A stretch of DNA of 64,000 nucleotides, taken from NCBI GenBank assembly GCA_951828515.1, contig OX639992.1, positions 1,826,008 to 1,890,007 on the forward strand, in the 5' to 3' direction. This DNA is from an uncultured Poribacteria bacterium (lineage in GTDB: Bacteria; Poribacteria; WGA-4E; WGA-3G). The notes under the pieces were generated by a model that did not search any database, was not told the DNA's origin, and worked only from the letters and a program-made list of their open reading frames with translations. Each line of letters begins with the position of its first letter. The first letter of the stretch is position 1. Shown here in pieces: positions 15,858 through 29,645 of the stretch. Position numbers and translations under genes: made by a program.

Positions 15858-18731
15858 TTAATTATCGCGCTGAAAACGGAATATCCCATTATGTTCTGTA
15901 CCGACGTAAAGTGTATTACGATCAACAGCAAGGGAGGTAACTGTGTATGGTATTTCTGGAGCAATTTGTTTCCAAGTGTTCGTTCGGCTATCTACTTGAT
16001 AAACCCCGCTGGCACATACACTGTAAAGGGTTGAGCCATCCGTCGCGATCTGATCCATAAGGAGTGGACACCCGTCAGTATCGGTGAGTGCATGCCAGGT
16101 TTCACCCTCGCGTGAACGCATCACTCCTGCGTCCGTTGAGATGTAGAGGGTTGAACCTACAAAGAGAATGTCTTTGTAGTAAGCAAACGGAAAGGCGAGG
16201 CTTTGGGTAATGTTCTTCCAAGTATTTCCACCATCCAGAGACCGGAAGAGGTCCCCCTCTCGTTTACCGGCATAGATGGTATCGTCCGAAGCGGCAAGAG
16301 CGAAACCTGTCTTAAGAGGTGAGATTTCTCCACCATCTTCCAAACCGGTGTGGTGCCACTCCGTCTCGCCGGGTCGCCACCTGAAAAGTTTCCGTCGGTG
16401 TTCCATAAAAACGGCTTCCCCGACGAGGGTAAAACTCCCGTTTGTTCTGTCTTCTGTCAGGAATAAGTTCTCGTCCCATAATTGTTCCGCTTCACGATCC
16501 CTGACGTTTGTTTCTCTGGCTTTTTGGAGCCTCTTCTGCAATTCAGTGTAGAGATCGTCTTCCTCGAAATCCGGCATACCTGGAACTGGTATCAGGGCAT
16601 CACTGCTAACGGGAAGGTAAAAAAGTTGCGTCCGATTACCGGGAACACTGCTGAGATGGAGAGTTGTATTGCTTGTCTGTATCTTTGGATAGACCAGAAG
16701 TTTACCTTCACTCTCCACGTTAAGGGTCTCCCAAGATTCACCACTGTTTTTTGATTTAATAATCTCTCCACCGGTGACTGCATAGAGAGCGTTTTCGACG
16801 GAACTTAGATTTTGAACATTGAAATTCGCGATCCCTGTTACAAAGGGATGCCATGTGTCCCCTCCATCCGTCGAGCGCGTTATTCCGCCGTAATAGGTTC
16901 TGTAAAAATTGTTTTCGTCCAACGCGATAGTAGGAGAAGCTCCAAATGCATGTCGGTCATTTCCAAGATACATCCACGTCTCACCGGCATCATAGGAGCA
17001 TAATATTCCACCAAAACTTATTAACAGAATCTTTTTCCCGATTGGGACGACTCTGACTGCGACTCCCATCTCAGGGGTATGCGGCGTAATATCGGTCCAT
17101 GAATCGCCGAGGTCGGTCGAATAGAAGACTTGGGCTTCAGGACCATGCCGTCGATTTATGCTCGTCCCGACGTAGAGCCTCTCCTCGGCAACTGCCAAGG
17201 ATTTAATACCGTGATCAGTCGGCACCGGCAATTTTTTCCAATTACCGGACAATCGGAAAAGCCCCCGACTCGTTCCGACAAAAAGCGTGTTATCAATGGC
17301 AAGCGCGTCCCGAATATGGAACTCGAAATCACCATCTTCCCGGACAATATCGGATCGCAAGACATGTCCTATGAATTCCCACTGCTTCCCAGCATCTTCG
17401 GAACGAAACACTTCGGTTCTGAGGACGAGGTACATCGTCATATCAGCATTCCCAGACTTGTGTTGCTGAGTGCCATCGGTAATCACCAATGCGACAGGAC
17501 GTCCCTCGGGGCGTGAGCCGAGAACACTCCAGGTTTTACCCCTATCCGTTGAGGCTAAAAGTTCATCGGATGTCAGGAGATAGAGGGTATCCCGGTATTC
17601 TGTCATGACCTTGCTGAATTCTCGCTTCGGACCGCTGGCACTGACAAGTGTCCACGCGTCTGTCTGTGGTGTGAATCGGTAGAAGCCGGGTTTCGCAACA
17701 GCATAGAGGGATTGGTCAGCGGCGAGAAAGAGTCCGGGATATGAAACCTCCCCTGTTCCGTTCGCTTGAATCCATTGCGGTTTCGCGGCGCGAGCGTCTG
17801 CCTCCTTGGGAGGCAAGGTAGCAAGCAAGTTGGGTCCCGGTTGTTGTCCGGCGCCTGTATTTTTGCCGAGCGTATCGGTGTTTCCGAATTGGTTTCTGAC
17901 ATCAGGCTTTAGTTTCAACGGAAGCACAACGGGTGCCTCAACGAATTCAATTGTCATCTCCGATGTTGCGTCTAAACTGTAAGGTTGCTGGAAACGATAC
18001 AGCGCACGTGTACCCACACCAATCATTAGAAGAATGAGAAACGTTGATGCGAAGGAAAACCCCCAGGGCACCCAAGGTTTACTTGCAGAAGGGGCAGTCG
18101 GCTGGAGACGAGCGATTTCTCGCATGACGTTCGCAGTCAGGGTCGACGGTGCTTGGAAAATACCGGAGACATCGTGGAGGAGGTGTTCTTGCGTTTTCAA
18201 TCGCTTGCGAGCCCGGTGGAGCCGACTTTTGATGGTGTTCGGGGATACACCCAAAAATTCACTAATCTTTTCACACGGCATCTCTGCGAGATAGTGCATC
18301 GTTACAACCGTGCGTTCGCTCTCTGGCAGTTTTTGGAGAAGACGCTTGACAAGGTCGCGCTGGTGCTCAACGTCTGCAGCTTCAGCACCTGTTGCCTCAT
18401 ACGCTGCATAGGAGAGTTCCGCCAGTTGGACCCCGGGCATCGCATCCAGAGATGTCGTTGGCTCCTGTTTCTTCCGCATCCACGCGATACACTGACGCGC
18501 CGCAATTACATAAAGCCACCCGAGAAAATGATACGGGGGTTTCAGGAGCGACAACTTTTTGTAAGCTTTCAGGAAAATATCTTGTGTGAGCTCCTGGGCT
18601 GTGTGAAAGTCGCCGATCTTCCGCCACACAAAGGTGTGGATCGGTTTCTGGTATCTGTTGACAAGCACGGTAAAAGCGTTGTCGTCTCCCTCTAAAACCC
18701 GCTGAATTAAGTCAAAATCATTGGTCTCCAT
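15858..18731 (-). CDS. ECF sigma factor fused to transmembrane anti-sigma-like segment and large BNR/Asp-box repeat (beta-propeller) extracytoplasmic domain
   Basis: N-terminal sigma-70 region 2 (DLIQRVLEGDDNAF...) and region 4 (ESERTVVTMHYLAEMPCEKISEFLGVSPNTIKSRLHRARKRL). One TM helix (WGFSFASTFLILLMIGVG). At least 8 Asp-box motifs S/TxDxGxTW (STDRGKTWS, SEDAGKQWE, STDLGDSWT, SYDAGETWM, STDGGDTWH, SKNSGESWE, SLDGGNTWK, SREGETWH). Confidence 0.75.
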   Translation of the reverse strand: METNDFDLIQRVLEGDDNAFTVLVNRYQKPIHTFVWRKIGDFHTAQELTQDIFLKAYKKLSLLKPPYHFLGWLYVIAARQCIAWMRKKQEPTTSLDAMPGVQLAELSYAAYEATGAEAADVEHQRDLVKRLLQKLPESERTVVTMHYLAEMPCEKISEFLGVSPNTIKSRLHRARKRLKTQEHLLHDVSGIFQAPSTLTANVMREIARLQPTAPSASKPWVPWGFSFASTFLILLMIGVGTRALYRFQQPYSLDATSEMTIEFVEAPVVLPLKLKPDVRNQFGNTDTLGKNTGAGQQPGPNLLATLPPKEADARAAKPQWIQANGTGEVSYPGLFLAADQSLYAVAKPGFYRFTPQTDAWTLVSASGPKREFSKVMTEYRDTLYLLTSDELLASTDRGKTWSVLGSRPEGRPVALVITDGTQQHKSGNADMTMYLVLRTEVFRSEDAGKQWEFIGHVLRSDIVREDGDFEFHIRDALAIDNTLFVGTSRGLFRLSGNWKKLPVPTDHGIKSLAVAEERLYVGTSINRRHGPEAQVFYSTDLGDSWTDITPHTPEMGVAVRVVPIGKKILLISFGGILCSYDAGETWMYLGNDRHAFGASPTIALDENNFYRTYYGGITRSTDGGDTWHPFVTGIANFNVQNLSSVENALYAVTGGEIIKSKNSGESWETLNVESEGKLLVYPKIQTSNTTLHLSSVPGNRTQLFYLPVSSDALIPVPGMPDFEEDDLYTELQKRLQKARETNVRDREAEQLWDENLFLTEDRTNGSFTLVGEAVFMEHRRKLFRWRPGETEWHHTGLEDGGEISPLKTGFALAASDDTIYAGKREGDLFRSLDGGNTWKNITQSLAFPFAYYKDILFVGSTLYISTDAGVMRSREGETWHALTDTDGCPLLMDQIATDGSTLYSVCASGVYQVDSRTNTWKQIAPEIPYTVTSLAVDRNTLYVGTEHNGIFRFQRDN

Positions 18732-18945: not shown

Positions 18946-19240
18946 AGAAGGGTCGTTGTTTTTTAGGATGTCTATGTATTTTTAGGATTTACCATAGTTA
19001 TGAAGGAAGAAGAGGCACAGACTAACAGTCTATGCTACGAATATCAAAATTTCTACACAGATATCGCCCCGCTGAGGCTTTAGCGTATTAGCGTTTTCTC
19101 ATTCGTAATTTACCAGAGATGTTCATTTTTTGCAAGGAATTTGGCTAAGAGCGGGTGTGTAAAATTTTGCCAGAAGATTGGGTTGGAAGGGTGGAAACTT
19201 GGAAGCGGAAAGTGTTGGTTGTCAGCGTCAGGTCAATTGT

Positions 19241-19267
19241 GTAAGTCCTAAGATCTTCAGGACTTAC
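19241..19267. repeat. perfect hairpin GTAAGTCCT-aagatcttc-AGGACTTAC built from the MITE TIR sequence
   Basis: 9-bp stem with a 9-nt loop; the arms are the TIR motif in inverted order. Confidence 0.5.
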
Positions 19268-19313
19268 GCAAAATGAAGATTAAGAATTTAATCGGGTAAT
19301 GCGGGTATTAATT

Positions 19314-19358
19314 GTCTGAATCAGGATTTTCAGGATTCAAGGATTTTCAGGATTATAG
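19314..19358 (+). repeat. CAGGATT-array repeat copy 1 (TGTCTGAATCAGGATTTTCAGGATTCAAGGATTTTCAGGATTA)
   Basis: A ~44-bp element holding four CAGGATT half-sites; also present at 48515 and 49552. Confidence 0.6.
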
Positions 19359-19420
19359 AACCTCTTTGATTGAGAACTTTCCTTTATAGAATTATCCAAA
19401 TATTTTATTAGGCTTCATAT

Positions 19421-19569
19421 TGCGTAAAGCAGCAATATATTTCACCCAAAAATGCCTCGCAGTGAGAGTATTTCAGTTATTTAACCCCCTAAAGAATCAA
19501 CGGTATGAATGCCTTATGGCATTCCCCGCCCCTTATCAGGGGGACTTCAAGAGGAAGTGTGTAAGTCCT
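19421..19569. repeat. MITE-family member (right TIR TGTGTAAGTCCT intact; internal module shared with 33112 copy)
   Basis: TTAACCCCCTAAAG...CCCCTTATCAGGGGGACTTCAAGAGGAAGTGTGTAAGTCCT parallels the 33112..33231 element. It overlaps the last codons of the nucleotidyltransferase gene. Confidence 0.45.
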
Positions 19570-19573
19570 AATC

Positions 19574-20251
19574 CTAAAAAAGTTGCTGGGCTGCCTGGAG
19601 GCGTTCGGGAGAGCCGATATCTATCCAATCGGGGTCGGTTTTAAGAACATGAAGGTTTTCTAATTTCGGAAGGACATCGTAGGAGAGAGAAAACACGTCG
19701 CTATCGGGAAACGATCGAGCAATTTTGCTGTTGAAGAGGTAGACACCGGCATTGATATACCCACTTTGGTATGTGGTAGGTTTTTCCAGGAATGCCGTAA
19801 TCTGCCCTGTATCCGAAGAGATGATTTCACCATAAGGACGGGTGTCATCCACCCAAACAGATAGCAGTAAACCTGCCATGTCCTCTCGAAATGTAGATAC
19901 CATTTCGTTGAGCGAGAAATCTCGCCACAGGACATCCCCGTTCAACACAAAGAACGGGGAACTCTGTATGTACCGCATTGCGTTTTTGATAGCACCCCCG
20001 GTGTCAAGTTTTTTATCTTCTTTACAATAGCGAATGGAAATGCCATTGTAAGACTCTCCGATGGTGTATTGGAGCACATCATGGAGGTGCCCAGTCGCGA
20101 GGATGAGTTCTTGGACTCCAACTTCCTTCAGGAATTCACACTGCCATTGTAGAATAGAACGGTTTTTGATTTTTAGGAGAAGTTTGGGGGTATGTTTGGC
20201 GGTGGCCCCCAGGCGAGTCGCATGTCCACCGCATAAAATGATTGCTTGCAT
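19574..20251 (-). CDS. sugar-phosphate nucleotidyltransferase (NDP-sugar pyrophosphorylase family)
   Basis: MQAIILCGGHATRLG N-terminal nucleotide-binding motif; 225 aa. Confidence 0.75.
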   Translation of the reverse strand: MQAIILCGGHATRLGATAKHTPKLLLKIKNRSILQWQCEFLKEVGVQELILATGHLHDVLQYTIGESYNGISIRYCKEDKKLDTGGAIKNAMRYIQSSPFFVLNGDVLWRDFSLNEMVSTFREDMAGLLLSVWVDDTRPYGEIISSDTGQITAFLEKPTTYQSGYINAGVYLFNSKIARSFPDSDVFSLSYDVLPKLENLHVLKTDPDWIDIGSPERLQAAQQLF

Positions 20252-20269
20252 AAATCTATCACCCTTGGT

Positions 20270-20296
20270 GGCGAGGTTAGGAAACCTCGCCAGCGG
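20270..20296. repeat. REP-like hairpin GGCGAGGTTAGGAAACCTCGCCAGCGG
   Basis: Same family; sits between the cytochrome-fusion gene and the nucleotidyltransferase gene. Confidence 0.65.
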
Positions 20297-20443
20297 TTGA
20301 ATGGTCCAGAATCTAAAGCGGTGTTGGCTTCGGGTTCTCTGAGGGTCCAGGCATCGGTTTGGGATCTGGAATGGGCTTCACGATTCCCATTTTCCAACTC
20401 ATAATTTTTCCTCCTTTCTAAAAAATGCATCTGTTTGCGGATT

Positions 20444-22294
20444 TTATTGACACGGTGTGCCGCTTGCCCGCAACAGCTGGTTTGCTCGAAATTGGTGGTT
20501 ATCAACTAAAATCGTAGGAGAGGCTCTAATGCCCAATTCCGCGGCACGTTTTATGTTCTCTCGGAAAAGTTGTTCTGCTTCCGGACTGTCAAATAGTGCT
20601 TGAATCTTCGCGACATCAATGCCGTATTTCTCAGCACAGTCCTCCCAACTCTTGTCCAGTTTTTTGCCGCGGCACAAAATATAGTCGAGATACTTATCAG
20701 GATACTCTCTCGCTATCAGTAACTGCCGAATGTTCTCTGCCACTTCGGGGTAGCCGTGTAGACTGGTGAACGGTGTTACCTCTTGGAGAGAAACAGTCTC
20801 TTTCTCTTGGGCGATAAAGCGGAGTTTAAAGTCAATTTTATCGCCAAACTCCTTCACGATCGGAATAATTTTCTCCTCCGCCTGAACACCGAATGGACAG
20901 TAACTCATTACAAAAAGTTCCAAGGTCGGTTTTCCCATTCGGGAAACCCGAGATGTCAATAATTCCTCAAGGTTCATCGGTTGGCGGCTGTGGTCCACAT
21001 CTTTGGTGTGGAGTGCTACCACTTCTGCAAACCCAGGCGAATGTTTTGTGTCGTGGCACGTAAGACAGAGCGATGTCTCAGCGGCGCGTCGGATATTCTC
21101 TTTCTTCGGATTGCCGACGTGTTGTTTGCCGGGACCGTGGCACGTTTCACATTGCACACCCTTAAAGGTCGATGTCTCATCACCAATCTGAAAACCTGTC
21201 TGGTAACCGAAGCCGGTCGTATGACAGGAAACACAATTCGGATTGAAGTATCGCTCTTTTTTCAACAGCGTTTCAAAAGCGAAAGCATGCCGTGTTGCAG
21301 ACCACTGGAGATATTCTTGCTCATGGCACCGCTGACAGGCAGTCGCTGATACATATCCGTTTTGCGGATCTTGTTCCAGTGGTTGTTCGGCAAAAAGGGG
21401 TTTGTGTTCAGACGATTGGGCAACCTCGCGGTAAAAATCGGTGAGCAACTGGCGCACGGATTCATCTTCTGGGACATCCCCGGTCAGTGCAAGTTGTGCG
21501 GCATGGTGTTGGGTTAGTTCACCGTCTGCATTCACCCAGAGTGCCAAAAAACCGAGTGTTTTCCCCTCAGATGTTGAACCTGCCCAAATCGGTGCGTTCA
21601 TCTGTTGAGTGGGTTCCACCTCTTCAGGACTGATGATGACATCGATATTAGGATGTTCCGTTGAGTTGGGTGTCCCTAAGGCAATCATCAGATTTGTATT
21701 TGGAAACTCTCGCTCAGTTGAAACGGGAACAACGGCAATTGAGAGTTCACCAGCAGTTTGAAGAATAGACGGTTGAGCGTAGGCGTGATTCTCATCAAGA
21801 AATGGGAATGATGCCGCAGCACGTCGCTCGATGAGATACGCATCTCCATAATTGAGGTCGTTTTGACTCAGCGCGATAGCGTCGTATCCCATTATGGACA
21901 TCGCTTTTAGATTTACCTGACACCTCTGTGTATCTATATCCTCGGTGCCATCGAAAATATCTCCAGCGTCAACCAAGAGCGTTGGAACGCCTTGTTGGCG
22001 GATTTGTGATATAAGGAAAGCACGCCTTGGCAAGCCACCGGCTTGTTCTTGATAGCATCCACACGGTTCCAGATGGCTTTTCGTGGCACCTGTATAGAGT
22101 ATCACGACAGAAGGTGGATCTTCACCTTCAAAGAGTGCGATAACGCTTTCAAAGGTTTCACCAATCGGTTGCCGTGCCTGTTGCTTGATTTCCTGAATCT
22201 GTTGCTGTCTGCGGGATTCCGCCCAATGTGTATATAGTGGTGGGACCCCGATAACAAGCGTTAGTAGAATTAAAGTGACGATAGCAAGCTTCAT
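20444..22294 (-). CDS. multidomain secreted/membrane-anchored protein: degenerate 5'-nucleotidase/metallophosphatase-like domain + tetraheme cytochrome c + C-terminal CPFG domain
   Basis: N-terminal hydrophobic anchor. VVILYTGATKSHLE...LLVDAGDIFDG...SQNDLN follows the 5'-nucleotidase pattern (ILHTNDHHS...LLDAGDQFQG...GNHEFD) with the His/Asp ligands replaced. Four CxxCH motifs (CQRCH, CVSCH, CETCH, CLTCH). C-terminal ~200 aa has SYCPFG. Its start is 2 nt from the upstream gene stop. Confidence 0.6.
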   Translation of the reverse strand: MKLAIVTLILLTLVIGVPPLYTHWAESRRQQQIQEIKQQARQPIGETFESVIALFEGEDPPSVVILYTGATKSHLEPCGCYQEQAGGLPRRAFLISQIRQQGVPTLLVDAGDIFDGTEDIDTQRCQVNLKAMSIMGYDAIALSQNDLNYGDAYLIERRAAASFPFLDENHAYAQPSILQTAGELSIAVVPVSTEREFPNTNLMIALGTPNSTEHPNIDVIISPEEVEPTQQMNAPIWAGSTSEGKTLGFLALWVNADGELTQHHAAQLALTGDVPEDESVRQLLTDFYREVAQSSEHKPLFAEQPLEQDPQNGYVSATACQRCHEQEYLQWSATRHAFAFETLLKKERYFNPNCVSCHTTGFGYQTGFQIGDETSTFKGVQCETCHGPGKQHVGNPKKENIRRAAETSLCLTCHDTKHSPGFAEVVALHTKDVDHSRQPMNLEELLTSRVSRMGKPTLELFVMSYCPFGVQAEEKIIPIVKEFGDKIDFKLRFIAQEKETVSLQEVTPFTSLHGYPEVAENIRQLLIAREYPDKYLDYILCRGKKLDKSWEDCAEKYGIDVAKIQALFDSPEAEQLFRENIKRAAELGIRASPTILVDNHQFRANQLLRASGTPCQ

Positions 22295-22296
22295 TG

Positions 22297-23445
22297 TTAA
22301 AAAAACCTATTTATAAGGGAGATTATCCCGAGGTGAAAGGGACCTTTACAGAGCACTGTTAACAATCCGCCGAATGTAATAACAGGTGCAAAACGAATCG
22401 CGGGTTGAATCCGAATCTTGTTATCAAAGTGTGCAAACGCGTTTTCTTTAACTAAACTCTGCAATTCACAGATTGTTTCGGCGGAAAGCCCGACTGGATC
22501 AGTTGTTATGAGCTCGGCACCTTGGCGTTCATTTCTATCCATCTGTTTCTCATAATGGGCACGACCATCCTCGCCTTCCTTTTTGACGATGTGTTCACTG
22601 AGGATCATCCCTACTTGGAGGTGTGACACTTCAATTATTCGATCAAATGCCACACTCGCTAACTGAAGCACGAGCTGCTTCGCTACCACAAAAATGAGTA
22701 GGTAGAAGCCTACAGAAAAGGCAATTCCTACCAGCAGCAGCCCGATGGAGGGGGCAGATTTCAGCATCAACCACCCGCTGAAAAATAAGATGACAACAAC
22801 AGCAGTTGGCGTTTTCAGCAAGGGACCCAAAACCTTTTGCATACCGGCAAAAACGAACAGGACTAATACGAGTCGCATCACTTGATCCAACTGCCAACCC
22901 AAACTATTGAAAAGGTAGGTAAGTCCTGCTCCAATAAGGATAAACTGAAGCAAACCATAGAGTTTCTCTAACAGGGAATCCCGATCAACGGAGGATTTGA
23001 TGAGTTGAATGAGCACTGCCCCTGTCCCCCGGACCCTGATTAACTTTACAATGAGGTAGCCTATTGCCACGATTGTGTAGGGAATGATGATATTGAGTGC
23101 CAATACTACCGGTGGAAACATTGATATCTCTTGTATAGGACCAAACCACCATGAAGGTAGTATTAAACAAAGCCCCCAGAATAACTTAGAGTCGCCGGGT
23201 GAAAAGACACCAAACGTATAGAGTCCGATGGCGATCGCACCACTAACCACAAATAGGATTGCAGCGTTCAAAGGAGTCGTAAGCCCCATAAAACAACCCG
23301 TTATTTGACCGAGGGTGCCTGCGTAAATGAGGCACATTGAACAGAGATTTGGTATTTTGTGGGTCTTTATGTCTGCATAACTTGCATAACCACAGAAGGT
23401 AAGAGCTATAGATAGAAGAACAGTCTCATAAATGAATGTGTTCAC
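22297..23445 (-). CDS. A24-family prepilin peptidase-like membrane protein with long C-terminal extension
   Basis: Both catalytic Asp motifs of A24/TadV/CpaA peptidases are present: ADIKTHKIPN (D-x5-IPN) and FSPGDSKLF (GxGD-KL). The ORF is 382 aa against ~170 aa for CpaA, with extra TM helices and a soluble C-terminal region. GTG start with a GGAAG RBS. Confidence 0.6.
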   Translation of the reverse strand: MNTFIYETVLLSIALTFCGYASYADIKTHKIPNLCSMCLIYAGTLGQITGCFMGLTTPLNAAILFVVSGAIAIGLYTFGVFSPGDSKLFWGLCLILPSWWFGPIQEISMFPPVVLALNIIIPYTIVAIGYLIVKLIRVRGTGAVLIQLIKSSVDRDSLLEKLYGLLQFILIGAGLTYLFNSLGWQLDQVMRLVLVLFVFAGMQKVLGPLLKTPTAVVVILFFSGWLMLKSAPSIGLLLVGIAFSVGFYLLIFVVAKQLVLQLASVAFDRIIEVSHLQVGMILSEHIVKKEGEDGRAHYEKQMDRNERQGAELITTDPVGLSAETICELQSLVKENAFAHFDNKIRIQPAIRFAPVITFGGLLTVLCKGPFHLGIISLINRFF

Positions 23446-23595
23446 AAAAACTTCCTATGATAATAGGAGGGTATTAGTAAACAATGATGGGTGCTTGTGT
23501 TTCCTTAATAAAATAAATTGTACCATCATTGATTTCAAAATACCCGCCATGTCTTTTACACCAAAAGATAGAACTTTAATGCTTACCTTTGATCA

Positions 23596-23892
23596 TCAAC
23601 TCGAGCGACACACATTTATCACTTCGCGGATAACCCTTGTGACAAAGTCGTTTTCAACTGGATCCCAAACCCAGTCTGTACCTACAGCGACTACCTTTTC
23701 TACATACTCATTCCCAGGCCCACAATCACCATCGTTATTGCACTCATCTGCATACGCTGATGAATTAAACACGATAGCTTGGACAAGCATGAGCCCTCCT
23801 GTAGCAATACTAAGAGTCAATGGTGTTTTTATACCTACACGGCCTTCCTCAGAATTGAGAAAGTCTTGAATTTTCGACTTGAGATTTTTCAT
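23596..23892 (-). CDS. small protein, paralog 1: conserved N-terminal leader (MKNLKSKIQDFLNSEEGRVGIKTPL), hydrophobic segment, Cys-rich C-terminus
   Basis: 98 aa. The first ~45 aa are ~80% identical to 25235..25522, and the shared C-terminal motif is C-[ND]-N-D-x-x-C-x-P-G-N. The upstream 60 bp is conserved between the two copies. Confidence 0.55.
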   Translation of the reverse strand: MKNLKSKIQDFLNSEEGRVGIKTPLTLSIATGGLMLVQAIVFNSSAYADECNNDGDCGPGNEYVEKVVAVGTDWVWDPVENDFVTRVIREVINVCRSS

Positions 23893-23986
23893 TCAGTTTT
23901 TCTTTTTTCTTTATACCGGCTCTCACACCCGGTCAGATTGACTCAACCTAGACTGTTTTGCAGGTTGATGCCTTCATAAAAGCACA

Positions 23987-24988
23987 CTATGGTTGTTTTA
24001 GATATCCCCACGACGTTGTCAGCAAATGAACTTGTGGGTGTACAGGCAACGCTCGTGGATCAAACCAACTCCCGAGGCTATTCACCCCTTGATGTGTCAG
24101 TTGCTTTGTCGATCGACGTGTGATATCAACTCTGAAGAGGTGTCTCTGCTCGTCAACCTTCTTTTCATAGAGGAGTTCAGTGCCATCAGGGCTCCACAGA
24201 GGGTGTCTCGCATATCCACCCGCTCTGGAGACGATCCGTTTCCTCTGTGTCCCATCGGGTCTCATAATATGAATCGTGGCCATATCGACTCGATCCAGAA
24301 GCCATGGAGCATCGGAAAAGGCGATCCATTCCGCGTCTGGAGACCATGAAGGGTACTTGTGACGTAAATCACCCAGAGACACTTTCCTCCGGTTCTGCCC
24401 TTCTGGCGAGATGAAAATGAGGGGGTAGCCTTCTCTTTCTTGTTGTGCGAAATTCGCTGCTGCAAAAGAGAAAACGATTCTCTCACCTTCTGGGGACCAC
24501 GCAGGTTGCCCGCCAAACTCCCCTGCGATAGCAAGCGGTTTTTCGTTTTTTCCATCAATGTCAGCTATGTAAATTGCCTCATCATGGTATCGGAAGTAAA
24601 CAATCCCTTTGCCATCAGGGCTCCATGCCGGTGCTGATCTGTCCGCTGCACTTCTAAAAACTCGTTTTACATTCTGACCATCCGCATCCATAAGGAACAC
24701 ATCTCGCTGACCGTCTCGATGAGACACAAAGAGAATATGTTCCCCTGTCGGTGAAAAGACGGGGGCATAATCGCGAGACAAGTGTTGTGTCAATTGGGTC
24801 ACTTCACTGCCATCGGGGTTCATGAGATAGATGTCCAGATTCCCTGTTATATCGGAGGCGAAGACAATCTTCGCTGTTTTCGGGGCTTTTGCCCAAGTCA
24901 GATCCAAAACACTGAAAAAAAACGATACGCAGAAAACGTAGAACATCAAAAGGGTAGGTTTCTTCATAAGTTTCTTTTCTGATAGCAA
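23987..24988 (-). CDS. TolB-like periplasmic beta-propeller protein
   Basis: Signal peptide, then repeated PxWSPDG blades (APVFSPTGEH, APAWSPDGKG, QPAWSPEGER, YPSWSPDAEW, HPLWSPDGTE). Start is either a TTG at 24988 with an AGGAG RBS or the ATG at 24967. Confidence 0.7.
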   Translation of the reverse strand: MLSEKKLMKKPTLLMFYVFCVSFFFSVLDLTWAKAPKTAKIVFASDITGNLDIYLMNPDGSEVTQLTQHLSRDYAPVFSPTGEHILFVSHRDGQRDVFLMDADGQNVKRVFRSAADRSAPAWSPDGKGIVYFRYHDEAIYIADIDGKNEKPLAIAGEFGGQPAWSPEGERIVFSFAAANFAQQEREGYPLIFISPEGQNRRKVSLGDLRHKYPSWSPDAEWIAFSDAPWLLDRVDMATIHIMRPDGTQRKRIVSRAGGYARHPLWSPDGTELLYEKKVDEQRHLFRVDITRRSTKQLTHQGVNSLGSWFDPRALPVHPQVHLLTTSWGYLKQP

Positions 24989-25234
24989 ACTATCACACTC
25001 CTAAAAATGGCATCGTCAGTGAGAGCCCGTGAAGTGAACACAGGGACCTTGCAGAGATACCACTGAGATCGTTTTTCCGTAAAAAAGACAAATAAAGTTA
25101 TCTTGACACAATACAACTTTATTTTTCAATCACCTGTAGGAACTTGGATAAAGTGGCTTGGCGAGATTTTTACAGCGGGCTTTCGCGCCACTTTTTGCCT
25201 CTCGCCAAGTCCGGGATGTTAGTTTCTAACATCG

Positions 25235-25522
25235 TTATTGGCAAAATGTATGTACTTCAACGATGTCTTCCACAACATGTCCTCGCATCGGACAAAAGAT
25301 CTCTTGAGTCCCAACAACAATTGTGACCGTTTGGCAGGTCTGGTTTCCAGGACATTGGGAGTCATTATCGCAAACTCTCCCAGCATCCGCATCGGGGGCG
25401 GTCATCGCTTGTGCAAGCAGAAGTCCACCTGTGGCGACACCGAGGGCTAGGGGTGTTTTCACGCCAACACGCCCTTCTTCGGAAGTCAGAAAGTCACTAA
25501 TACGCGACTTAAGATTTTTCAT
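25235..25522 (-). CDS. small protein, paralog 2: conserved N-terminal leader (MKNLKSRISDFLTSEEGRVGVKTPL), hydrophobic segment, Cys-rich C-terminus
   Basis: 95 aa, with an AAGGAG RBS and 5 Cys in the C-terminal half. Paralogous to 23596..23892. Confidence 0.55.
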   Translation of the reverse strand: MKNLKSRISDFLTSEEGRVGVKTPLALGVATGGLLLAQAMTAPDADAGRVCDNDSQCPGNQTCQTVTIVVGTQEIFCPMRGHVVEDIVEVHTFCQ

Positions 25523-25572
25523 TTGGTTTCTCCTTTCTTTTTACCGGGGATCTCAGACCCGGCAGGATTGAC

Positions 25573-27207
25573 TTAACCGGAACGGTTAAGCCCATTTCCA
25601 GCAAGAGGTACCTCGCGCTGGAAGTGCTTGAAAACAGATTCAACTTCGGCAGGGGTATGGTGTTTGGACAATACTTCTGCTAAAGCGTTTTCAAGGCGTT
25701 CAAATCGGTTTGTCTCCTGCCGATAGACACTCGGATAAGCCATTCCGGTTCTCGGGTCATAGTATCGGCAGAACAGGGGCTGACACAGGGATAGAGGTGT
25801 TGATGATTGGCAGCGTGTATTGGCACGCGCTGAACCTTGCTTAAACAGCCTCACAATCTCCTGAGCGGTGCGTTCCCACGTATATTTTGCTACGAATCCT
25901 TTTGCTACCTCCCTATACTTTTCGCATCTTTCCGTGTCACTTAGTAATTGGTTTATAGTTTCAGATAGATGCTGCATTGGAACCTCCAAATCGTTTCCTT
26001 TTCCAGCAGGACACTGGACAAGTACTCCCGCACCCTCAATTTCCGGCGGTAGTCCATATTTTGAAATCACAACTGCAGGGGTCCCGTATGCCATTGCTTC
26101 CAAAACCAATGAGGGGGAAGTCCCTGGTACAGCAGGGAAACAAACGACATCCAATGCTTGGAAGAATATGGGCAATACTGATCGCGTGCTTTCGTCACTT
26201 GCGTTGAAGATCACCAAGTTGCTCAGCGGATTCCGATATGCGTCAGCCAAAATTGAGTCGTAGACAAAGAAAACAAGGTGTGGGTTTGCAGTCGCGATAT
26301 CCAAGATATTCCGCATTCCAGCGTTTGGTTCAAATCCCGAAATAATACCCACCACGGGCCTCTGTGCAAACAATGGATTATCTGTAAGCACGGCAGCGTG
26401 TTGCTTGGCTAATTCTTTCCCGATAGGTTCAACGACATTGATGCCCTCTGAAATTGTGTGCACCCCTGCAGAGTCCACCCCGAATTCTGAGAGCCAGTCG
26501 GTAAGCCATGTAGCTTTGGACAGAATTAAATCTGTGGATTTCTGTGCCGTGTACGAATTCAAAGCAGATTCAAGGATTAAGGCTTGCATTCGTCTGTCAC
26601 TCTCTAAACAGCGAAGGACCGGCAGATTTTTAGAATAGTATAGGATATCGTGACTTGGAAATTGTCCAAGCAGTAAGATACCATCGTAGCCATCCATTGC
26701 ATACCAAGGGAACCAGAAATTTGAATGCTTCTCAATTATATCGCGATTTGATACGAACCCTCCAAAATCATGTCCCGGCTCCCCATTGATGTTGAAAGTT
26801 TCTAATTCCGCCAGTTTTGAGAGTGCTACCAATAGATGGAACCGGTTCTCGTTTGTTACAGGGTCCTGAACACTTTTTTCTGGAACAAACTGAAAGGGAA
26901 CAAGTAATTTGAGTCTCCTATCTGATTGAGAAGGTATGTAAGTGCTCCAAGTAGGACTTGACAACTGTCCCCGTTGACTGAGCCGTTGCAACCGTTCAAT
27001 GCCTTCAAAAATCTGCTCTATTTTGAATTTCGATCTTAACCTCTCAACAGTTGCATAAAGTGTTTCAGTGAGATTTTGATCAAGGAGTTCCCATTCCACA
27101 TCGTTAATTTCAACAATAGTATCAGATTCTAAGTCAGCGGCGTATTTTCGCCCCGACTGCTCAAATTTGCGGTGTTGATGCACTCGATATCTTGTTTCTA
27201 CCTTCAT
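25573..27207 (-). CDS. GT4-family (GT-B) glycosyltransferase with N-terminal PqqD/RRE-like domain
   Basis: C-terminal PAVPGTSPSLVLEAMAYGTPAVV is the GT4 E-x7-E region. The N-terminal ~90 aa (YAADLESDTIVEINDVEWELLD...IFEGIERLQRLSQRGQL) follows the PqqD pattern v.eLN..a..iw.l.dG..t..ei...l...y...eI..Dv..fl..L...GlL. Confidence 0.7.
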   Translation of the reverse strand: MKVETRYRVHQHRKFEQSGRKYAADLESDTIVEINDVEWELLDQNLTETLYATVERLRSKFKIEQIFEGIERLQRLSQRGQLSSPTWSTYIPSQSDRRLKLLVPFQFVPEKSVQDPVTNENRFHLLVALSKLAELETFNINGEPGHDFGGFVSNRDIIEKHSNFWFPWYAMDGYDGILLLGQFPSHDILYYSKNLPVLRCLESDRRMQALILESALNSYTAQKSTDLILSKATWLTDWLSEFGVDSAGVHTISEGINVVEPIGKELAKQHAAVLTDNPLFAQRPVVGIISGFEPNAGMRNILDIATANPHLVFFVYDSILADAYRNPLSNLVIFNASDESTRSVLPIFFQALDVVCFPAVPGTSPSLVLEAMAYGTPAVVISKYGLPPEIEGAGVLVQCPAGKGNDLEVPMQHLSETINQLLSDTERCEKYREVAKGFVAKYTWERTAQEIVRLFKQGSARANTRCQSSTPLSLCQPLFCRYYDPRTGMAYPSVYRQETNRFERLENALAEVLSKHHTPAEVESVFKHFQREVPLAGNGLNRSG

Positions 27208-27216
27208 TTTACAACC

Positions 27217-28926
27217 TCACGCTGTCGCTTGAATAAAGCCGTAGCATCTCGCAAGTATCGCCTTCGCGGTATCCTCATCTTCAATGAGTTCACTAAGTAT
27301 TGTTTCCACTTCCCTGACGGTATGTTCTTTGAGAAGGCTAATAACCAATCCGTCCTCAACTTTCTGGTTAAAAATTCCGTAGGGATTTACAAGCATTTCA
27401 TATCGCGAATTCATATTGAGTACTATGGACTTCTGTTCTAACCGTTTCTGATGGGTGTTCCAATAAGATGAAAAAAAAGTGTTGAGTCGATTTTCACAGA
27501 ACAATTTCTTTTTCCAATTGAGTTCCGAGAACAAGTCAAGGATACGTTGCGCTGTTTTCTTCCAAGTGAACGTTTGTGCGCGATTCAGTGCCTTTTGAGC
27601 GTAGGCTGCTCGTAGGGAATTGTCGTTTAGCAACAGATTTACCCCTTCCGAGAAGTCAAGTGGAGAAGCATAACTGGCAATGCTCGTGATGTCCTGTTCA
27701 AAGGGAACGGTAGGAACGATCAAACCCGCATCTCCCACGACAGAAGGAACACCATCAAAATCGGAGATGACCGGTGGTACACCGCACGCCATTGCTTCAA
27801 GCACTGTTAATCCGAATGTCTCCTCGCCAGACACGGAAGGGAAACAATATACATCAAAGGCGTTGTAAATCAGCGGTAATTTTTCACGATCATAGAATCC
27901 GATATAGATAAGGTTCTCGGGAATTTTTCGCTGTGCGTATCTACCCTCATTCTGACCCGCCTGCAAAAAGAGAAGATGTGGGTTGAGTTCTGCCAACTTC
28001 AGGTAGATAGATGCCCCCTTTTCAGGTTGGAAACGAGAGAGGTAACCCACGGTGGGCATTGTTTTAATTCGTTCATCTCCTACGCGTTTCGCGAGTTCAT
28101 TCTTTGCCTGTTGTTTATCCATTGGACGGAATAAGTTTAAATCTACACCATTTGCGACAGTATTGAAAACACCTTTATCCCAGACGAACTGGGAATAAAA
28201 TTCGCCAACAGAATCTGTAGGTGCCGTGAAGGCATCATAATCCCGTAGAGCAGTATAGTGTAACAATACAGAACGCACGTTTGTACCACCATGTCCACCC
28301 ACCGAATGCACTTGCATTAGAATCGGAGGGAGTTCGGGACATCGGAATAGTGGGATGAATCCTTCTTGGCTACGGTCAGAGTGGATTGTAAGGATACCTT
28401 CATATTGCGAAGCAATCTTTTCGGGTATACGCACCATGTCGAGCAGACTCAAATCCACTTCGTAGAAATTCTCGCCAAGTTTTCTGTTTTGTGTGCCAGC
28501 AAAGTGAAGTACTGCCTGGTCTTTCAGAGCCTGAATAGTATAAGCGAGAGCAACATGGGTCCCAGCACTGGTATTTTCTATGTCTGAAACAGCATCGGGA
28601 GCCAACCCCTGGACCACCAATAAAAAATGTGGACAATCTCCTTTTTTGAAAAATAATACGTCGGATTTCTCACCACGATTAAGGAGTAAACCCCGTCCCA
28701 CATATTCGATCAATGTCTCAAATGCTTCTTCAATATCACCATCACTGTAAGCGGTTTTTAATGTCTCTATAATTTCCTCTGTCGTCCGTGTCTCCGCGAG
28801 TTTCAGAACATCAGCAATCGCAGCAGAGATTTCGACGAGACTTGCTTTATCCAAGTCTGCGGCGTAAAGTCCACCATCTTTTTCAAAAATATGGAGTTGA
28901 TGAAGAGGTTTCGGAAAATCAAGCAT
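27217..28926 (-). CDS. GT4-family (GT-B) glycosyltransferase with N-terminal PqqD/RRE-like domain (paralog)
   Basis: PSVSGEETFGLTVLEAMACGVPPVISD is the GT4 motif. N-terminal LYAADLDKASLVEISAAIADVLKLAE.RTTEEIIETLKTAYSDGDIEEAFETLIEYVGRGLL is PqqD-like. Start uncertain (ATG at 28926 or TTG at 28950). Only 10 bp separate it from the downstream paralog. Confidence 0.7.
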   Translation of the reverse strand: MLDFPKPLHQLHIFEKDGGLYAADLDKASLVEISAAIADVLKLAETRTTEEIIETLKTAYSDGDIEEAFETLIEYVGRGLLLNRGEKSDVLFFKKGDCPHFLLVVQGLAPDAVSDIENTSAGTHVALAYTIQALKDQAVLHFAGTQNRKLGENFYEVDLSLLDMVRIPEKIASQYEGILTIHSDRSQEGFIPLFRCPELPPILMQVHSVGGHGGTNVRSVLLHYTALRDYDAFTAPTDSVGEFYSQFVWDKGVFNTVANGVDLNLFRPMDKQQAKNELAKRVGDERIKTMPTVGYLSRFQPEKGASIYLKLAELNPHLLFLQAGQNEGRYAQRKIPENLIYIGFYDREKLPLIYNAFDVYCFPSVSGEETFGLTVLEAMACGVPPVISDFDGVPSVVGDAGLIVPTVPFEQDITSIASYASPLDFSEGVNLLLNDNSLRAAYAQKALNRAQTFTWKKTAQRILDLFSELNWKKKLFCENRLNTFFSSYWNTHQKRLEQKSIVLNMNSRYEMLVNPYGIFNQKVEDGLVISLLKEHTVREVETILSELIEDEDTAKAILARCYGFIQATA

Positions 28927-29273
28927 ATTTTTTGTCTCTATATACAACAAACTGAATCAACACATTATTTTATTTCAACTCGAAGAATGCCAATTCTTGA
29001 AATAATGCTCTGTTACAACGACAGATATCTCTAACGAATTTTTTACGTATCACTCAGCATTCTCTATGTTGCAATTCCCGTGCCAATTGGAAGAACCCAC
29101 GCCGTTCGTGAATTTTAGGAAAATGGGACTACGCAAATTTTTCGCAGTCGGCAAATTTTGCATACCGAATCTCTGCAGATATTGCAGAGTTCCAAAAGGC
29201 AGTGGCACCGGCGCGCGATATATCGGGGACGAACACTATGGTAAACTTTAGAATTAACTGTACACTCTGCACC

Positions 29274-29294
29274 GGCGAGGTTAGAAACCTCGCC
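29274..29294. repeat. REP-like hairpin GGCGAGGTTAGAAACCTCGCC
   Basis: Same family. Confidence 0.6.
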
Positions 29295-29360
29295 TACCCG
29301 GGGAGGGGAGAATGTCTGCTTATTTTTTTGGTTTACCATAATAGCGACAAACTCCTTAAC

Positions 29361-29645
29361 CTACTCCCAATCCGCGTGTCCGCTATCAACCATCCTCCGA
29401 TTGACATACAAGTTATCCGAGTATCGCCAGACATGCGCGACTATGCGCCCATAAATATCGGTAGCTACCGACTTGATTGTGACGCGCTTCAGCTCTATGA
29501 GAAACTTTAGATAGGCAGTGGATATTTGTCCTTCGGGGGTGCTGTTTTCAGGGGCATTTATATTTGCCAAGCGAATGCGTTGAGTTGACGTGTTAAAGGT
29601 ATCACCATCAGTTACGGATGTGACGTAGGTTGAATATTCATGCAT
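29361..29645 (-). CDS. thermonuclease (staphylococcal nuclease-like) family protein
   Basis: VTDGDTF...IRLANINAPE...DIYGRIVAHV matches the SNase core (v.DGDT..irL.giDaPE....YGR.la.v). 94 aa with a GGAGG RBS. Confidence 0.6.
   Translation of the reverse strand: MHEYSTYVTSVTDGDTFNTSTQRIRLANINAPENSTPEGQISTAYLKFLIELKRVTIKSVATDIYGRIVAHVWRYSDNLYVNRRMVDSGHADWE

Follow-up and report, generated by a model that had tools for sequence, protein, structure and literature searches.

A RiPP-like gene cassette of Candidatus Poribacteria centered on two RRE-bearing GT4-type proteins

Two adjacent open reading frames (ORFs) in the genome of an uncultured Poribacteria bacterium raise the question of whether a pair of glycosyltransferase-like proteins acts on peptides rather than on polysaccharide. 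The window that we analyzed is a 64,000-nt stretch of contig OX639992.1 (assembly GCA_951828515.1, positions 1,826,008 to 1,890,007), to which all coordinates refer unless a related locus is named, and the two ORFs lie in tandem on its minus strand, at 27217..28950 and 25573..27207, just as an original prediction from the letters alone had described them. That prediction assigned to both products a glycosyltransferase family 4 (GT4) region and an N-terminal domain resembling PqqD or a recognition element (RRE) of pathways for peptides of ribosomal origin that are modified after translation (RiPPs). Both assignments were borne out in our analysis, and the two genes belong to a RiPP-like, multi-copy cassette that is specific to Candidatus Poribacteria and undescribed, although an RRE-directed tailoring enzyme is itself a known idea. 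A peptide rather than polysaccharide substrate, as the prediction had suggested, is supported by context only, in that the small ORFs at 23596 and 25235 belong to a leader-bearing family of more than 300 members that adjoins these enzymes.

Recognition domains and catalytic regions of the two proteins

As mechanically listed, the first ORF starts with a TTG at 28950, but its real start is most likely the ATG at 28926, because the homologues found begin with MLDFPK or near variants. We call the resulting 569-aa protein (27217..28926) GT-A and the 544-aa product of the second gene (25573..27207), which lies 9 nt downstream, GT-B; these names denote the proteins, not folds. The two are paralogs: they are 26% identical from residue 8 through to the C-terminus, and the aligned part takes in the first ∼90 aa as well as an extension at the C-terminal end. 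The N-terminal pattern quoted in the original prediction is present as LYAADLDKASLVEIS...GRGLL in the first protein and as KYAADLESDTIVEIN...QRGQL in the second, and hundreds of homologues of either protein retain this YAADL...[ST]LVEI[NS]...G.LL-type pattern. The domain spans residues ∼8–85 of GT-A (28672..28905, minus strand) and residues ∼9–86 of GT-B (26950..27183, minus strand), the latter defined by a family profile and by its alignment with the RRE of GT-A.

Searching the single sequences with Pfam PqqD (PF05402), the test that the prediction had proposed, yielded E = 0.12 for GT-A and no match for GT-B; the homology came from family profiles and structure prediction instead. Both proteins gave weak NCBIfam matches to the N-terminus of an ScfB-related radical S-adenosylmethionine (rSAM)/SPASM maturase. 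A profile combining 37 N-terminal domains of the GT-A and GT-B families had a single significant solved protein as its match (5WGG/5WHY chain A, residues 6–80, E = 1.6e-9). Built separately, the GT-A profile matched the CteB RRE (5WGG, E = 1.3e-11) and the GT-B profile matched residues 6–89 of the same structure (E = 8.8e-13), its top match, above every glycosyltransferase. PDB entry 5WGG is CteB (PMC10177961), the SCIFF maturase, and the N-terminal domain of CteB is an RRE (PMC8172795). Structure prediction with AlphaFold2 (AF2) agreed with the profiles: the isolated GT-A N-terminal domain was modeled with a predicted local distance difference test score (pLDDT) of 73, and the full-length protein with a pLDDT of 89 (∼95 across the N-terminal domain) and a predicted template modeling score of 0.88. 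The order of elements in GT-A (β11-16, β19-24, β29-33, α35-43, α49-56, α62-77) is the β3-α3 winged helix-turn-helix topology expected of an RRE of ∼80–90 aa, and RREs ranked first in both structure searches. This winged-helix domain is separate from the N-lobe of the GT-B fold, which begins near residue 100 in the AF2 model, so that the alternative raised by the prediction itself, an N-terminus that is simply part of that lobe, does not apply.

Domains of this type are rare. Among 1.84 billion representative proteins, an exhaustive hidden Markov model search turned up no more than 298 that carry it, and ∼45 of these are full-length RRE-GT4 proteins of 530–580 aa. The weaker matches to the domain were CxxxCxxC radical-SAM proteins, which NCBIfam places in the SCIFF, CcpM, nif11 and QhpD peptide-maturase families. 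The GT-A and GT-B families together comprise more than 1,700 homologues at E ≤ 0.001, and the RRE is strongly conserved in both. On sequence and model evidence, each of the two proteins begins with a domain that shares homology with an established RRE, of the kind found in radical-SAM/SPASM maturases, and a leader peptide would be expected to bind in its β3/α3 groove.

The catalytic regions of the two proteins differ. Pfam Glycos_transf_1 (PF00534, gathering cut-off 26.4 bits) matched both above its gathering score, with 84 bits for GT-A and 39 bits for GT-B, and the family profiles of both matched solved GT4 enzymes as well, in agreement with the predicted GT-B/GT4 region. The canonical E-x7-E motif that had been ascribed to both proteins is present in GT-A (E369-x7-E377) and broken in GT-B, where PGTSPSLVLE lacks the first Glu. 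In GT-A, a GT-B-fold catalytic region extends from about residue 96 to 474 (27505..28641, minus strand) and contains the motifs SR298FQPEK303G and SGE368E369TFGLTVLE377 together with an HxxRGHGG motif in the N-lobe (residues 207–214). Its SR298xxxEK303G and E369-x7-E377 motifs vary little or not at all among 24 homologues with identities down to 32%, and in the profile alignment SRxxxEKG and EX7E line up with the matching motifs of solved GT4 enzymes. The fold is nearest to those of the retaining GT4 enzymes MshA, GlgM, sucrose-phosphate synthase (SPS), PimA, HepE and BshA; in a Foldseek search with the model, MshA (3c4q) was the best match (E = 3.7e-19), followed by GlgM, SPS, PimA and BshA. 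Judged by these motifs, GT-A is a GT4 enzyme with a catalytically intact site.

In GT-B, the corresponding regions read SGFEPNAG, in which the Arg and the Lys are gone, and PGTSPSLVLE370, in which the first Glu is gone along with a two-residue deletion. None of the 32 GT-B family members examined has the Arg, the Lys or the first Glu, and GT-B also lacks the HxxRGHGG motif found in the N-lobe of GT-A. The second Glu is retained in close members (LVLEAM) and lost too in many divergent ones. GT-B, with its degenerate GT4-like domain, is probably a non-catalytic partner, because the Arg/Lys and the first Glu of the GT4 motifs have been lost. This catalytic degeneracy was not part of the original prediction.

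Behind the glycosyltransferase fold, both proteins carry a further, conserved domain, at residues ∼476–569 of GT-A (27220..27501, minus strand) and, as its counterpart, at residues 478–544 of GT-B (25576-25776, minus strand). AF2 models that of GT-A as a β-hairpin followed by three helices, and it contains an invariant His535. The idea that this ∼90-aa domain is a second RRE was rejected as unsupported by sequence, since hhalign gave a probability of 0.2% against the N-terminal profile. A profile search of the PDB with the domain detected no similar sequence (best match MgrA, E = 0.16). In both proteins it may be a second winged-helix-like module.

Precursor-like peptides and the surrounding cassette

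Two small genes on the minus strand next to the GT pair encode candidate precursors. Peptide 1 (25235..25522, 95 aa) consists of a leader with the motif F11xxSExG17, a hydrophobic stretch and a core with five Cys; peptide 2 (23596..23892, 98 aa) has the same kind of leader and a core with three Cys. They are 47% identical overall and almost the same over the first 45 residues. To place them in context, we used the 76 distinct GTDB loci that a scan with the full-length GT-A alignment as query had retained as best matches, and counted gene content in 80 sequence sets, namely the window and 79 related loci, each ±10 kb. Leader-bearing peptides were found in 62 of the 80 sets, with one to five genes per locus and up to five different peptides at a single locus, ∼70–100 aa in length and amounting to 107 unique sequences. 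A profile search recovered 303 database clusters of the family, none with a Pfam domain, and all clusters with a named source are listed as 'hypothetical protein [Candidatus Poribacteria bacterium]'.

The peptides have a conserved leader and a variable core. A charged n-region of ∼28 residues carries the motif F-x-x-S-E-x-G-x-V-G-x-K; it reads MKNLKS(R/K)I(S/Q)DFLxSEEGRVGxK... in the window and occurs at other loci in the variant MKTNLRGKIREFxQSEEGKVG. Among the 107 unique peptides mined from the loci, the E and G of FxxSExG are conserved in 100%, the F in 96% and the S in 92%; in a second set, 22 aligned sequences that span divergent subfamilies, F, E and G do not vary. The n-region is followed by a hydrophobic stretch of ∼20 residues and then by A-x-A (78% and 87%). 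The core has a median length of 39 residues and is 15% Cys, mostly with 4, 6 or 8 Cys per peptide; its entropy exceeds 3 bits except at the Cys positions, and the last Cys lies within 5 residues of the C-terminus, while the first 45 residues of the peptides contain no Cys. Short precursors that pair a conserved leader with a variable core, encoded beside an RRE enzyme, are the arrangement by which RiPP clusters are recognized.

A subfamily at the related loci L050, L054, L055 and L077 has the leader F.xSETGSVG.K and short, Cys-free, Ser/Thr-rich cores that end in ...AI (for example, L055 2786-3046 and 3306-3521). It adjoins the RRE-GT pair and an A24 peptidase gene at L050, L054 and L077; L055, a 5.9-kb fragment, has neither. 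Because peptides with Cys-free cores still adjoin the RRE-GT pair, Cys is, as these loci suggest, not what the glycosyltransferase recognizes. Among known precursor families, HxsA3 (NF038309), the substrate of the His-Xaa-Ser rSAM/SPASM system, has an N-terminus that 6 of the 22 aligned leaders matched weakly (best E = 2.1e-5, with scores far short of the family cut-off). No SCIFF-type match (TIGR03973) was found for the peptides.

The GT pair and the peptides form part of a compact gene set on the minus strand, at 19.5–29 kb of the window. GT-A-type and GT-B-type genes occurred together in 78 of the 80 sequence sets, and the gene order with leader-bearing peptides was kept down to ∼31% GT identity. 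Nearly all of the 76 distinct loci are labeled as Candidatus or uncultured Poribacteria, a few only as 'uncultured bacterium', and none as another phylum; OZ246958.1 and CAXXEU010000002.1 each contain at least five cassette loci per genome. A gene for a PD40/TolB-like β-propeller with an N-terminal signal-like segment (23987..24988, minus strand) is present in 43 of the sets and often follows each peptide gene in related loci.

An archaeal-type A24 aspartic peptidase of the class III signal or prepilin type (22297..23445, minus strand, 382 aa) has counterparts in 59 of the 80 sets. The window protein scored 26.0 bits against Peptidase_A24, just under the Pfam cut-off of 26.5 bits, and has both Asp motifs (Asp25 in YADIKTHKIPN and Asp85 in PGDSKL). 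Its family is ∼378 aa long, and YxDxxxxxIxN and GD[AS]KL are conserved in ∼60 homologues. Peptidase_A24 was detected in 10 of 10 diverse homologues scanned (best E = 4.9e-8) and Arc_PepC in 8 of the 10, an architecture which, going by these profile matches, is archaeal-type Peptidase_A24 plus Arc_PepC in a bacterial phylum. The family profile found no match by sequence among solved structures, and no NCBIfam model covers the window protein.

The start of the next gene overlaps the end of the A24 gene. It encodes a fusion of a UshA-like metallophosphoesterase, a c554-type multihaem domain and a DsbA/thioredoxin domain behind an N-terminal membrane or signal segment (20444..22294, minus strand; 44 of the 80 sets), and it scored 220 bits against NF041198, 'UshA-like (seleno)protein' (cut-off 275 bits). 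The fusion is a candidate periplasmic oxidoreductase for the Cys-rich cores. We also noted that it contains EPCGC, which resembles the Cys form of the 'PCGU' motif hinted at by the model name UshA_like_PCGU. A sugar-1-phosphate nucleotidylyltransferase gene (19574..20251, minus strand) was found in only 19 of the 80 sets; its product could possibly supply the nucleoside diphosphate (NDP)-sugar, and its membership in the cassette is uncertain.

A scan of 10 flanking ORFs of the window, three without any Pfam hit, detected no pilus-assembly, flippase or polymerase domains, and none appeared in the related-locus gene lists that we examined. A scan of 19000-29600 for promoters and terminators returned a number of sites not above chance. 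Beside the cassette, at 15858-18731, lies a gene for a fusion of an ECF-type sigma-70 factor with a large BNR/sortilin-like β-propeller (957–1023 aa), which also occurs in a 58%-identical relative (L001-L003, about 1.5–7.1 kb) and may be a dedicated regulator. On the other side, just upstream of GT-A (29361-29645), a 94-aa ORF looks by eye like a fragment of the staphylococcal-nuclease (thermonuclease) type.

A proposed glycosylation pathway and its rivals

With slightly better than even confidence, we propose that these genes form a RiPP-like protein-glycosylation cassette, specific to Poribacteria, for the leader-guided glycosylation of secreted mini-proteins. Binding of the leader by the RREs, glycosylation of the peptide with its site and sugar, a complex of GT-A and GT-B, A24 cleavage and disulfide formation are steps that we infer. 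In the cytoplasm, the RREs of GT-A and GT-B would dock on the conserved N-terminal leader of the adjacent 70–100-aa precursors; there, GT-A would move a sugar from an NDP-sugar onto a precursor residue, probably a Ser or Thr, and GT-B would probably hold the substrate without being catalytic itself, in the way that GtfB assists GtfA. The leader would double as a class III or extended signal peptide, since its charged n-region runs up to a Gly and is followed by a hydrophobic segment and AxA. At the membrane, the A24 peptidase would remove the n-region at the conserved Gly, the variable core would be released after AxA outside the cytoplasm, and the UshA/multihaem/DsbA fusion might oxidize its Cys to disulfides. 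For the PD40 partner, we considered roles in immunity, as a chaperone or as a receptor.

Several observations weigh against this proposal or parts of it. The cores share no universally conserved Ser or Thr (just 82 of 210 contain G[TS]C), and the acceptor could even be the Ser that is conserved in the leader motif. The window peptides themselves have odd Cys counts (five and three) and unusually long cores. With an AxA after the hydrophobic segment, a plain Sec/signal peptidase I (SPase I) route could be sufficient, which would make the role of the A24 peptidase less clear. Moreover, the protein at the A24 position of L001-L003, a SAM-dependent methyltransferase fused to an A24-like C-terminal membrane part (16632-18332 in L002 and L003, 16909-17661 in L001, where it is truncated), lacks both catalytic Asp motifs; a domain swap could explain this, as could an artefact of the assembly. 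That GT-B lacks the first Glu of EX7E is no proof of its inactivity. Finally, the distances between leaders correlated with those between RREs at a Spearman coefficient of 0.33, against 0.18 for the GT-A core (33 locus pairs); given how weak this co-divergence is and how far common ancestry confounds it, we do not count it as evidence.

The cassette was also weighed against other explanations. Much of what suggests a class III signal peptide, namely the conserved neighboring A24 plus Arc_PepC peptidase with intact Asp motifs and a charged n-region that ends in an invariant Gly before ∼20 hydrophobic residues, would equally suit pilin-like surface proteins (Flp/type-IV- or archaeal-pilin-like) that are cut by the A24 peptidase and held in the membrane or a filament, in which case the glycosyltransferases would be a pilin glycosylation machine and not a RiPP pathway. 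By eye alone, the peptide leader is indeed similar to that of Flp, which we take to read ...FLKDExG up to the cut. We nevertheless consider this unlikely: the peptides have no Pfam Flp or pilin match at E below 1 and no EY motif, the AxA that follows the hydrophobic segment in roughly 80–87% of them suggests a released core, and their hypervariable, Cys-rich cores are unlike the globular domains of pilins. Nor did the flanking ORFs scanned or the related-locus gene lists contain Tad or type IV pilus ATPase, platform or secretin domains, and a pilin would fit poorly with as many as five different peptides at one locus and with two genomes that each have at least five loci.

We give similarly little credence to the idea that the RRE-like domain merely persists as a structural relic or serves in regulation or protein-protein contacts, that the GT4 proteins build a cell-envelope glycan or glycolipid, and that the peptides are unrelated secreted proteins. 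Public annotation of the homologues as 'glycosyltransferase involved in cell wall biosynthesis' points in this direction, as do the small-molecule, lipid and glycan substrates of the nearest solved GT4 enzymes (MshA, PimA, GlgM, SPS and BshA), the nucleotidyltransferase nearby and the search for acceptor sites in the cores, which found none. Against this, the domain is strongly conserved in both paralog families, its nearest relatives outside the RRE-GT family are all peptide maturases, the gene order with leader-bearing peptides persists down to ∼31% GT identity, and the cassette showed no flippase, no polymerase and no other gene typical of polysaccharide clusters. Even less credible to us is a variant that keeps the leader guidance and has both proteins active in sequence, GT-B with another donor or catalytic arrangement, to make a di- or oligosaccharide. 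GT-B does pass the Glycos_transf_1 threshold (39 bits), its close members keep the second Glu (LVLEAM), and both proteins retain the RRE and the C-terminal domain; yet the donor-diphosphate Arg/Lys, the first Glu and the Gly-rich N-lobe motif are lost, in divergent members together with the second Glu, a pattern of loss typical of pseudoenzymes.

Beyond the leader-guided cassette, which we favor, a wider claim can be advanced only tentatively, and we regard it as somewhat doubtful: that the products are a previously unrecognized class of Poribacteria glycopeptides or mini-proteins in which one leader is at once the dock for an RRE-GT4/pseudo-GT4 heterodimer, a class III-type signal and an A24 substrate, with many orthogonal copies per genome that yield different disulfide-rich glycosylated cores and are often paired with PD40 proteins. 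If true, such glycosylated, disulfide-rich cores could act within the sponge holobiont as effectors or bacteriocins.

Comparison with known systems

RREs are the main class-independent handle for new RiPP pathways. To our knowledge, glycosylation is rare among RiPP modifications, and its enzymes have so far lacked an RRE; an RRE-guided GT4, if true, would amount to a new kind of programmable, leader-directed glycosylation and be of interest for peptide engineering. Closest in the recognition domain are the CteB/ScfB-, CcpM-, nif11- and QhpD-type maturases, with which the GT pair shares an N-terminal RRE of ∼80 residues, in fold and position (E down to 8.8e-13). By their family names and descriptions, these maturases also act on Cys-rich peptides (six-Cys SCIFF, Cys-rich CcpM). 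They differ in what follows the RRE: here it is a GT-B/GT4 catalytic domain, with no radical SAM or SPASM domain and no Fe-S motifs.

Fusions of an RRE with a glycosyltransferase have been listed before. RRE-Finder flagged a cyanobacterial one (Hassallia byssoidea KIF29242.1; Kloosterman et al. 2020, PMC7470986), and a structure-based RRE survey of 2025 described an RRE fused to a PF00535 (GT2) glycosyltransferase (PMC12710340). The idea is the same, as both reports present them as predicted RiPP tailoring enzymes, bioinformatic and uncharacterized. In contrast, the Poribacteria proteins are GT4 (PF00534), come as an active and a degenerate member with an additional C-terminal domain, and are accompanied by an A24 peptidase and signal-like leaders. 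The LPP RiPPs, in which an archaeal-type signal peptidase I serves as leader peptidase together with a discrete RRE (Nat Commun 2026, PMC13381572), likewise place a secretion-type peptidase in an RRE-dependent pathway; the likeness is one of analogy between different systems, with SPase I in place of A24, a discrete RRE, kinase/nucleotidyltransferase (NTP-transferase) chemistry and Bacillota hosts. We found no literature linking a prepilin or A24 peptidase with RiPP precursors. The 'srp RiPPs' of Poribacteria are unrelated azol(in)e peptides.

The A24 protein itself resembles the archaeal peptidases FlaK, PibD and EppA in its Peptidase_A24 plus Arc_PepC architecture, both Asp motifs and the class III-like leaders beside it. 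It differs from them in its bacterial host, in the absence of pilus or archaellum genes nearby and in putative substrates with an AxA and a Cys-rich variable core. Glycocin enzymes of the SunS/ThuS/GccA type glycosylate disulfide-containing, secreted ribosomal peptides in the cytoplasm before export; these glycosyltransferases are GT2 enzymes of the GT-A fold and are not known to carry an RRE, and the precursors use double-Gly leaders and ABC-transporter peptidases. The cassette is like them in the proposed glycosylation of a peptide before export, and unlike them it has a GT4, an RRE and an A24 peptidase.

A degenerate partner has a close parallel in GtfA/GtfB of accessory Sec systems, in which a GT4-family enzyme O-GlcNAcylates serine-rich repeat adhesins and an inactive partner of the GT-B fold aids substrate binding. 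Its substrates are huge serine-rich adhesins with an unusually long signal peptide, which are glycosylated before export through a dedicated SecA2/Y2 translocon. The likeness lies in a GT4 protein with a degenerate partner, and homology holds only at the level of the GT4 superfamily, with a weak NCBIfam match to GtfA (TIGR02918, E = 0.004); GtfA/GtfB are not known to carry an RRE, and the cassette has no SecA2/Y2 translocon. With two genomes that each hold at least five loci, and with more than 300 clusters of peptides, the cassette has expanded in sponge symbionts that are uncultivated, which hints at a large and little-explored family of molecules secreted within the sponge holobiont. It also joins subjects that are usually kept apart: RiPP leader recognition, class III signal-peptide processing by A24 peptidases and active/pseudo-enzyme glycosyltransferase pairs in the style of GtfA/GtfB.

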